Shown piece after piece: positions 15,001 to 18,000 of a DNA stretch of 64,000 nucleotides (position 1 is the first letter of the stretch; each line of letters opens with the position of its first letter). Made by a program: the position numbers. Origin of the DNA: a plasmid; NCBI RefSeq assembly GCF_057098645.1, contig NZ_JBXSPU010000002.1. One strand, 5' to 3'.

Positions 15001-18000
15001 ATGTTGTTCGCCCTGGCGGGATAATGGAAGCTCCAGGTTCTCCCGATGGTGACGCAGCAGATTGTCGATAAAGCGTCTGTCAGGGGCGTTATAGTGCAGG
15101 GCAACGTAACAGGCCTTTTCCAGCCGTTCCGGGCCGTATTTTTTCTGAAGTGCCAGCAGCCCCAGAACTGCACGATAAGCCAGTTCCGGATGGGGTTTTG
15201 CCTTCAGCATGGATTCAACCACCCGGCCTGTGGACGGGCCCGTACGTTTTCCCTGCTCGATCAGGCGTTCCGGTGTCCATGTCCCGTGCTGCCGGTGGCG
15301 CTCTGGCATGTGAAGCGGATTGGTTGTGTGTTTATATTCATGTGTGCTGCGCGGATGTTGCGCCACACACTGCCCCTTGTGCCAGAGCTGTACCACCGAC
15401 TGCCCCGCCTTCAGTGACAGACGCTGACCGACCAGTTCGTGTGGAACGGAGTACCAGTGACGGGCATATTCAACGTGGTAGTCAGGGCCAACCTTCACAG
15501 CTTTGTATTCCGTGTATTCATAAGGTGCCAGAGGCAGCGGAGAGAGTGCTGGCGCATCCAGTATGCGGAAGCGTTCTGCACGGGTTTGATTGCCGTACCC
15601 CTTCATTGGCCGGTTATTCATGTCTGTCAGTAACTCCCTAAGGCGCGCATTCAGCGCCCTGAGCGTGTGGAAGGTTTCATTACGGATGCGGGCAAGAAGC
15701 CATCGTTCAACGATGAGGACGCCGTTTTCTGCTTTTGGTTTATCTTTAGGTTTGCGTGGTCGGGCCGGGATGATAACCGTGCCATAGTGCTCAGCCAGTG
15801 CCTGATAACTGTCGTTGATGACAGGCTCATATCGATCGGCCTTTTTCACTGCGCTTCTGAGGTTATCGGGGATGAGCAGCTTCGGTACGCCGCCCAGGAA
15901 GGTCAGGCAACGGCTGTGGGCATTTAACCATGACATCATGTCCTGACCTTCGCACGCTTCAACGTAGGTATAGTTGGACGCCCCCATTACGGCCACGAAG
16001 ATTGCCACGCGGCGTATCTCACCGGTGTCCGGATTAATAACAGGAACCGTAGGACCACAGAAGTCGATAAAAAGCTTTTCGCCGGCACGATGCTCCTGGC
16101 GCATGGAGAGACGTCGCGTTTTTTTCCACTCCCGGTAGCAACGGCAGAAGTGCGAGTATCCCATCGCTTTGTTACCCGCCTGTGCCTTGTATTCCATCCA
16201 CAACAGTTGCCGCGTCACACCTGGTTTTCTCATTTCCGTATCGAAGTACAACATGTCAGGCATTACAAGCTCTGATGCAAAGGTGTCTTTGGGCGGAAAA
16301 ATGAGTTTCTCCAGCGTGTCATGGGATATATCAGCAGGTAATGGCCATGACAGAGAAGAGGCTTTGAAGCGGGCAAGAACCTCAAAAACGGTTGAGGCGC
16401 TGATGTGTAACGTCAGTCCGATACAACGGTTAGTCAGCTTCTTGTCGAACTTGAGCTGAAGGATCTTAAAACAGGTTTCCATAGTGCTCCTGGATTTTCT
16501 CTTTCTGGACATTGACGTCTCCACTGGTTTAAACACGGCAATGGAGACTGTGGTGAAAAGAGTTAATTCCCGGAGTGACTGGCAGGATGCCAATCAATGA
16601 TCGGAAGCATGCCAAATCGTGATCGATTGTGATGCCAAACTGTGATCGGAGATGGATGCCAAATCATGATCGATTCGAATGCCAAACTGCGATCGATTCA
16701 GATGCCATTTTGCAAAAGTGGCATCGCCAGTCCGACCGGTACATTATCCACCCGGTGAACTTTGACCAGGTCACTGTTATCAATAATCAGCACCGATGTG
16801 CGGACATTAACCAGCAGGCTGATAAGCACAAACACGGCCACCCAGCCCAGCAAATCCATCACGTTGTGCCGCTGTACCCACATCACGGCCACCGCGAGAA
16901 CAGACAATGTGAGCGCAATTTTTTCAATGGAATCCCACGTCCTGGTTCCCATAAAGGCGGCAATGGCGTTCAGGTTATTCCGCAACCACTCACCACCGGC
17001 AATCACATAAACTTCATTCACAGCGTGCTCCCTCCGAAGTGATAGTTGTTCTGGTAACGACTGAGCATGCGGGCGGAAAGCTGCTGACGCATGTAGCTCA
17101 TCTGACGATCGACAACCAGCAGCGCATCCTGCTGTACCTGCACCTGTGACTGAAACGCCGCAATCTGCCGGGTGGCATCATTCATGTTGTCGTTAATATG
17201 TTCGATAACTGCTTCGTCATAATTTCCTGTGGCCACCATCGCCCGGGCCTGCTGTATCAGCTCCTGAATGTACTGCAGCAGGATGTCGTAACCGATATAG
17301 TCCGTCAGCTGGTAAATCATACTGTTGGAAACACCGAGCATCTGCGGGTCAACCAGGTATTTGAAGACGGGGATGGTGGTACTGGAAATAAAGCCTTTTT
17401 CCTTGTCATCCAGAGGCGTGTCACTGACCGCCTTGTTCTGAATGCTGGCCAGAAGTTTAGTAATCTGAGACTTCAGTGCATTATCCCGGCTGATGGTCAC
17501 CGGTGTGTCTGCCACCACTTTCAGGCATTTATCAGAATCGTTGCAGTGATAAATTTTTGCTGTGCCGCCTTCCATCATGGCCCGGATAATTGAGCGGTCA
17601 GTGGTTCTGGCTGACAAGGGTGTGATTTCGCCGTTAGGACCAAACACCAGTGAGCCGGTCAGCGTCATCACAAACTCTTTCAGCTCTTTGTTGCCGTCAA
17701 ACATTCTGTTTTTGGAAAGCGCATTCCACATGATGTTGATGTTTTTGGTCACCCGCTCCTTATCCTTGTCGCTGGCTTTATCCCTGACACTGTCAGATTT
17801 CCCGCCAACGGTACATCCCTGCCGGGAAGCCGCCCAGTCAGCAAAAATATTGCTCTCACCGGCAATGTCCTGACAGACTTTCTGCTGGGACACCTGCGTC
17901 CGGGTGAACCGCCCCGGGTTTCCTGGAGAGTGTTTTATCTGTGAACTCAGGCTGCCAGATCATCGTTTCCGATGGAAGCATAATAAGCTTTTTCTGCTTC

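Follow-up and report, generated by a model that had tools for sequence, protein, structure and literature searches.

Within a 64,000-nt stretch of plasmid DNA (assembly GCF_057098645.1, contig NZ_JBXSPU010000002.1), which we refer to here as the window, F-type transfer (tra) DNA occupies positions 16715-17904 on the minus strand, a segment of 1,190 bp that is 98.25% identical to plasmid F. Using blastn to compare positions 60000-99159 of plasmid F (NC_002483.1) with the window, we obtained a single 1200-nt match, between F 84532-85731 and window 17914-16715, with 98.25% identity. Alignment at the level of individual bases placed the right edge of the tra DNA at 17904/17905, with the insertion sequence (IS) end TGAACCGCCCC beginning at 17905, and the left edge at 16715, with the terminus of an IS21-family element (...TTGCA) ending at 16714. 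We rejected an extension of the tra homology to 17914, as the additional positions represent a chance match of 7 out of 10 bases inside the IS629 end. On the other side, F and all of the tra-bearing plasmids cease to match the window beyond 16715, and the adjoining positions 16698-16714 are the outer end of the IS21-family element.

Two minus-strand ORFs lie within 16698-17904, one of 291 aa (17018-17893) and one of 107 aa (16698-17021). The former is part of a traH pseudogene remnant (17018-17904, minus strand) that consists of 2 nt followed by codons 164-457 (294 codons) and the stop codon; codons 1-163 of traH, including the start codon, have been replaced by the IS629-type element at 17905. 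The export signal (signal peptide) of F TraH is known to lie within these missing first 163 residues. The latter ORF begins with a traG pseudogene remnant (16715-17021, minus strand), which comprises the GTG start, codons 1-102 of 938 and 1 nt more, and whose start codon overlaps the traH stop (GTGA). A sequence-only reading of this locus had credited the remnant with the first 107 codons of traG. The start of traG is indeed present, but the true count is 102, and the last 5 codons of the chimeric ORF are derived from the IS: the tail at 16698-16714 (minus strand) supplies the rest of codon 103 and four further codons (together LQNGI), as well as the stop.

Using tblastn, we found that the window matches residues 160-457 of the 457-residue F TraH at 98.7% and residues 1-102 of the 938-residue F TraG at 98.0%, and these were the only matches in the 64-kb window among 29 F proteins. 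Both fragments were also recognized by NCBIfam profiles, TraH by NF010279 (pilus assembly protein; profile positions 169-456 of 457, E 1.5e-164, 547.9 bits) and TraG by NF010295 (mating-pair stabilization protein; profile positions 1-101 of 922, E 1.5e-43, 149.1 bits). Each score falls below the curated full-length cut-off (625 bits for NF010279 and 600 bits for NF010295), as would be expected because the sequences are fragments. By these matches the traH remnant is a true F-type TraH homologue, but a fragment of one. The comparisons with F (blastn and tblastn) and with NCBIfam bear out the proposal made in the sequence-only reading that the 3' part of traH and the start of traG persist here as a remnant between two insertion sequences, and that they would match F TraH and TraG.

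Because TraH lacks its first 163 residues and the TraG fragment amounts to only 11% of the protein, neither should be able to contribute to conjugation, and both should be inert. The remnant ORFs are free of internal stop codons and frameshifts, and an in-frame GTG ORF of 291 aa is present for the traH fragment, features that could be taken to mean that the fragments retain some function, for example as an expressed truncated TraH or TraG peptide. We consider this extremely improbable, as the traH fragment has been stripped of its start, of its export signal and of the operon upstream from which it was promoted, the window encodes no Tra protein that could serve as a partner, and sister plasmids carry different truncations as well as a frameshifted traG, which argues against selection. 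The intact frames fit either a young truncation or slow decay, and do not by themselves prove that the fragments are unexpressed. None of the evidence we gathered contradicts the reading of this segment as a relic. We conclude with high confidence that this 1,190-bp segment is what remains, without function, of an F-type tra operon, and that its two ends are rearrangement joints, mediated by IS elements and differing in age.

The right bound of the relic is a complete IS3-family element of the IS629/IS1203 type (17905-19214, minus strand, 1310 bp). The element contains orfA (18834-19160, 108 aa) and orfB (17947-18837, 296 aa), both of which match the NCBIfam IS3 family transposase, and it ends in the terminal repeats TGAACCGCCCCG; a length of ~1310 bp, terminal inverted repeats and the orfA plus orfB arrangement of a frameshift-fused transposase place it in the IS629/IS1203 group of the IS3 family. 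Three further complete copies of this type (22046-23355, 31817-33126 and 39797-41106) are 96.9-98.2% identical to the copy at the relic. No target-site duplication (TSD) accompanies the element at 17905-19214, which is flanked by GGG and GCC, and none is present at any of the four copies in the window, so that each of them marks a rearrangement joint between virulence modules.

The modules in question lie in the adjoining block (19215-33126), which contains a gene for a cytochrome b562-like protein (19272-19661), katP (19705-21915) followed by an IS629-type copy, and ehxCABD (23737-30863) followed by another. Together with the relic this block forms a 16.4-kb segment (16715-33126) that is colinear, at 99.35% identity, with positions 56249-72660 of NZ_CP024480.1, in the order traG'-traH'-IS629-cybC-katP-IS629-ehxCABD. 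The joint between traH and IS629 recurs, without a base of difference, in ~20 EHEC virulence plasmids of the pO103 type. These complete plasmids, identified in PLSDB and among RefSeq complete E. coli genomes, match across the joint at 98.5-99.9% identity, and their hosts include O103:H2, O45:H2, O121 and a porcine aEPEC strain, among others, while in plasmids with an intact traH the homology ends at this joint. The shared joint and the colinearity over 16.4 kb indicate that the relic arrived together with the enterohemorrhagic E. coli (EHEC) virulence block. The window carries two marks of the pO103/pO157-type lineage, namely the derived traH'::IS629 joint and the colinear katP and ehxCABD genes; RepFIB-type replication or partition genes were not found in the 64 kb. 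Further along, at 34544-39354, is an ecf-type lipid A/LPS modification cluster (polysaccharide deacetylase, glycosyltransferase, cptA and lpxM/msbB) that matches pO103-type plasmids and is inverted relative to the ehx operon.

Relatives of this block also show how the right edge of the relic was formed. NZ_CP024480.1 retains traM, a fragment of traJ truncated by another IS629 copy, and the series traH'-traG (frameshifted)-traT-traD-traI-traX-finO, with nothing between traJ and traH; its traH fragment, the same as that in the window, is labeled by PGAP as 'incomplete; missing N-terminus'. The gap between traJ and traH indicates that the pilus-assembly half of the operon was lost in the common ancestor, where IS629-flanked virulence modules replaced it. 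The pO103-type EHEC virulence plasmids are F-like plasmids that have themselves undergone decay. EHEC virulence plasmids have been described as containing partial IncF transfer clusters (finO, traXIDTSG) (PMC3893438), and rearrangements flanked by IS1203/IS629 have been described in pO103-like FIB plasmids (PMC6985150).

The left bound of the relic is a complete IS21-family element of 2639 bp (14076-16714, minus strand), annotated by PGAP as ISSso4-like, of which the 64-kb window holds one copy. The istA gene lies within 14947-16593 and istB within 14175-15173, and the corresponding NCBIfam matches are to an IS21 transposase (E 1.1e-84) and an IstB helper ATPase (E 2.2e-76). The termini are TG...CA and bear the reiterated motifs GATTGGCAT and TTTGGCAT, features that together with istA and istB place the element in the IS21 family, and annotated ISSso4-family elements match the window from 14075/14076 to 16714/16715 at 99.7-100%. 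Both bounding elements, IS629 on one side and a member of the IS21 family on the other, had been correctly identified in the sequence-only reading. No TSD of 4-8 bp is present at the ISSso4-like element, which has AGTAAAGCAC, part of the IncHI1 DNA, on its left and AAAGTGGCAT, part of traG, on its right. Since the elements that bound the relic lack TSDs, we interpret both edges as rearrangement joints rather than simple insertions. In contrast, an IS903-type insertion in the same window (6318-7374) has a perfect 9-bp target duplication, CCCTCAGAG. This element, located in the IncHI1 backbone, is the only IS we examined in the window that resembles a simple insertion.

The DNA to the left of the ISSso4-like element (1-14075, plus strand) is IncHI1 plasmid backbone, interrupted only by the IS903-type insertion. 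In two blocks, 13,019 bp of the window are 100% identical to positions 25623-38632 of pYPE10-190k-tetX4 (NZ_CP041449.1), a plasmid typed as IncHI1A by PLSDB, and the stretch is also close to pO111_1. This identity of 100% continues to the edge of the window, and in intact IncHI1 plasmids 3.6 kb separate the start of the segment from trhI and the trhW-U-N transfer genes, which lie upstream of it. When the whole 190-kb IncHI1 reference was compared with the window by blastn, nothing was found beyond the 13-kb block, and neither this search nor tblastn with 16 IncHI1 transfer proteins revealed RepHI1 replication genes or trh/tra regions in the window. The RepHI1 genes and transfer regions of reference IncHI1 plasmids fall outside the homologous stretch, and a transfer system of the IncHI type may be located a short way upstream, beyond the window. 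Judged from the DNA it contains, the replicon is a mosaic of an EHEC virulence block and IncHI1 DNA.

Neither joint of the IS21-family element was present in the other records that we searched, so there is no intermediate with which to compare this arrangement. Spanning queries identified no record in PLSDB or among RefSeq complete E. coli genomes that covers the joint between traG and the IS, and an exact 40-mer of this joint, a search pattern that we confirmed to be present in the window, gave 0 matches in GTDB species-representative genomes and 0 in JGI metagenomes. When the chimeric ORF of 107 aa was looked up by exact match, no called protein was on record. The joint between IncHI1 DNA and the IS was likewise without a record in PLSDB, and we found nothing relevant in the literature on IncHI1 plasmids carrying ehxA or katP. 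One candidate source of the traG'::IS21 joint, plasmid p3R-3, was rejected, as its insertion site is a different one (between trbJ and traQ).

Two joints that are absent from other records, and that coincide exactly with the two ends of a mobile repeat of 2.6 kb that has no TSD, could also be the product of an assembly chimera in which two replicons were merged via the repeated IS. Several considerations make us regard such an artifact as improbable. The IS629 joints also lack TSDs, yet numerous complete assemblies, made independently, confirm them; it is usual for these plasmids to be mosaics of this sort (PMC6985150); and the break in traG would still require an IS at that site even if the IncHI1 DNA had been joined to it in error.

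With regard to transfer, the sequence-only reading considered self-transmission from this region unlikely, a view that our searches support for F-type transfer. The window contains no other F Tra protein, no oriT, no leading-region sequence, no RepFIA, RepFIB or RepFIC, and no sop. Comparison of the window with positions 1-50000 of F and with the remaining 40 kb of NZ_CP024480.1 added only IS matches and the ecf genes. A functional F-like conjugation module, which would include oriT, the TraI relaxase, the TraD coupling protein and the genes for the pilus and mating-pair formation, is absent from the 64-kb window, as is a replication gene of either IncF or IncHI1 type.

These findings bear on the nature of the replicon itself, which had been proposed to descend from an F-like conjugative plasmid. 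That description holds for the 16.4-kb block, but the replicon as a whole is a mosaic with IncHI1 DNA and there is no replication gene in the window. We see two principal ways to account for this mosaic. In the first, to which we give somewhat more credence while falling short of favoring it outright, a conjugative plasmid of the IncHI1 group, or a cointegrate of IncHI1 and IncF plasmids, has taken up the EHEC block with the tra relic as a passenger and is perhaps self-transmissible via the IncHI trh system. This is consistent with the 13 kb of IncHI1 backbone that adjoin the IS21-family element at 100% identity and with the lack of a TSD at that element. IS21-family elements fuse replicons to form cointegrates, leaving one copy of the IS at each joint, and replicon fusion by IS21 is reportedly a subject on which Reimmann, Berger and Haas have worked. 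Weighing against this account, the window contains no IncHI1 replication or transfer gene and no second copy of the IS, and neither joint is found in the public records searched.

In the second, which we hold to be possible and somewhat less likely, we are dealing with a virulence plasmid of the F-like (IncF) kind that has decayed and is unable to transfer by itself, and that captured the IncHI1 fragment as a passenger. Some 47 kb of the window (16.7-64 kb) consist of virulence-plasmid or IS-rich DNA, with best matches to IncF-typed plasmids, as against 13 kb of IncHI1 DNA, and the related pO103-type plasmids replicate via RepFIB. On the other hand, no IncF replication, partition or leading-region sequence is present in the window; the IncHI1 stretch reaches the window edge with its identity undiminished, so that 13 kb may understate its length; and in intact IncHI1 plasmids the DNA that adjoins it is the trhW-U-N-trhI transfer region.

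Whichever replicon hosts it, the relic is best explained by two steps. The first is old and is shown by comparison with related plasmids: in an F-like plasmid ancestral to the EHEC virulence plasmids of the pO103/pO157 type, IS629-type elements put virulence modules in the place of the region that began in the 3' part of traJ and ended at traH codon 163. This step left traH'-traG-traS-traT-traD-traI-traX-finO, with all of the pilus-assembly genes upstream of traH already gone. In the second, recent and lineage-specific, an ISSso4-like element came to lie at codon 102/103 of traG with IncHI1 backbone on its other side. As a result everything from traG codon 103 onward is absent here, and the katP, ehxCABD and ecf/cptA/lpxM block is joined to the IncHI1 segment.

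The second step could have taken place through IS21-type replicon fusion (cointegrate formation), through homologous recombination between two copies of the IS, or through an IS-adjacent deletion; the joint is present in the DNA, and the mechanism is one that we infer. As the ISSso4-like element lacks a TSD, it is not a simple insertion. A fusion would predict a second ISSso4-like copy elsewhere, flanked by the continuation of the IncHI1 DNA and by the rest of traG; the window does not contain this second copy. The remainder of the operon, from the rest of traG to finO, could reside at such a copy elsewhere.

The right part of the window is rich in IS elements, with members of the IS3, IS91, Tn3, IS66 and ISL3 families and a second IS21-family element. 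A Tn3-family unit, comprising a serine resolvase and a 988-aa transposase, and the second IS21-family element, which shows no nucleotide similarity to the element at 14076-16714, lie at 42330-45909 and 47069-49038, respectively. The final 15 kb (49098-64000) are 99.97% identical to pCAU16175_2, a plasmid from swine E. coli in China, and encode an autotransporter of 1327 aa (52088-56071) and the reverse transcriptase of a group II intron (56554-57780), along with pieces of IS66, IS91 and ISL3 elements. In pCAU16175_2 the matching stretch includes a PerC-family regulator and is flanked by genes for the type III secretion system effectors EspT, EspG and NleG.

EHEC virulence plasmids are well known for their decayed F-type tra regions with IS629 at the boundaries, which count as a hallmark of this group, and the relic in itself matters little, being of an ordinary and well-known kind; its left breakpoint is previously unrecorded. 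The traH::IS629 joint serves as a lineage marker that ties the block to the pO103-type plasmid line. It is tentatively suggested, at a likelihood well short of even, that the left edge of the relic reflects a genuine fusion in which a conjugative IncHI1 backbone was joined to an EHEC block (ehxCABD, katP and ecf) that is normally non-transmissible. Were this the case, an enterohemolysin and catalase module would reside on a self-transmissible plasmid of broad host range, with a type of IncHI1 backbone by which resistance genes, tet(X4) among them, are disseminated in livestock. Should the link be real and an IncHI1 transfer system be intact elsewhere on the replicon, virulence genes usually found on non-conjugative plasmids would become mobile, which would be of epidemiological interest and would not imply a new mechanism.

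Comparison with named plasmids places the locus among known systems. Plasmid F itself (NC_002483.1) matches the relic at 98.25% over traH codons 164-457 and traG codons 1-102 and has the same GTGA overlap, but it possesses the full traM-traX operon and oriT, whereas the 27 other F proteins that we tested have no match in the window. The pO103-type plasmids (pO103, NC_013354.1; NZ_CP024480.1; and pF2_18C_FIB, NZ_CP043544.1) have the same joint of traH codon 163 to IS629, at 99.9% over the 1,190 bp, and the same order, traG-traH'-IS629-(cybC-katP-IS629)-ehxCABD. They differ in keeping traG (full-length or frameshifted) through finO, as well as traM, whereas in the window traG is cut at codon 102 and its neighbor is IncHI1 DNA.

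Plasmid p3R-3 (NZ_CP049351.1, IncF) carries the same ISSso4-like element (99.8%) within an F-type tra region. There the element sits between trbJ and traQ with tra DNA on both sides, while in the window it sits in traG with tra DNA on one side only. A further counterpart is pUTAK-6-pO45 (NZ_CP157150.1), in which, as in the window, traH' abuts IS629 and only an N-terminal fragment of traG remains, both annotated as pseudogenes (5992-7172). Its traG breakpoint is 28 bp nearer to the start codon (the match begins at window position 16743), and the fragment adjoins a pseudogene of an Rpn-family recombination-nuclease rather than an IS21-family element. The truncation of traG in pUTAK-6-pO45 is independent of that described here and shows that erosion of this sort recurs; the 5' end of traG seems to be a repeated target.
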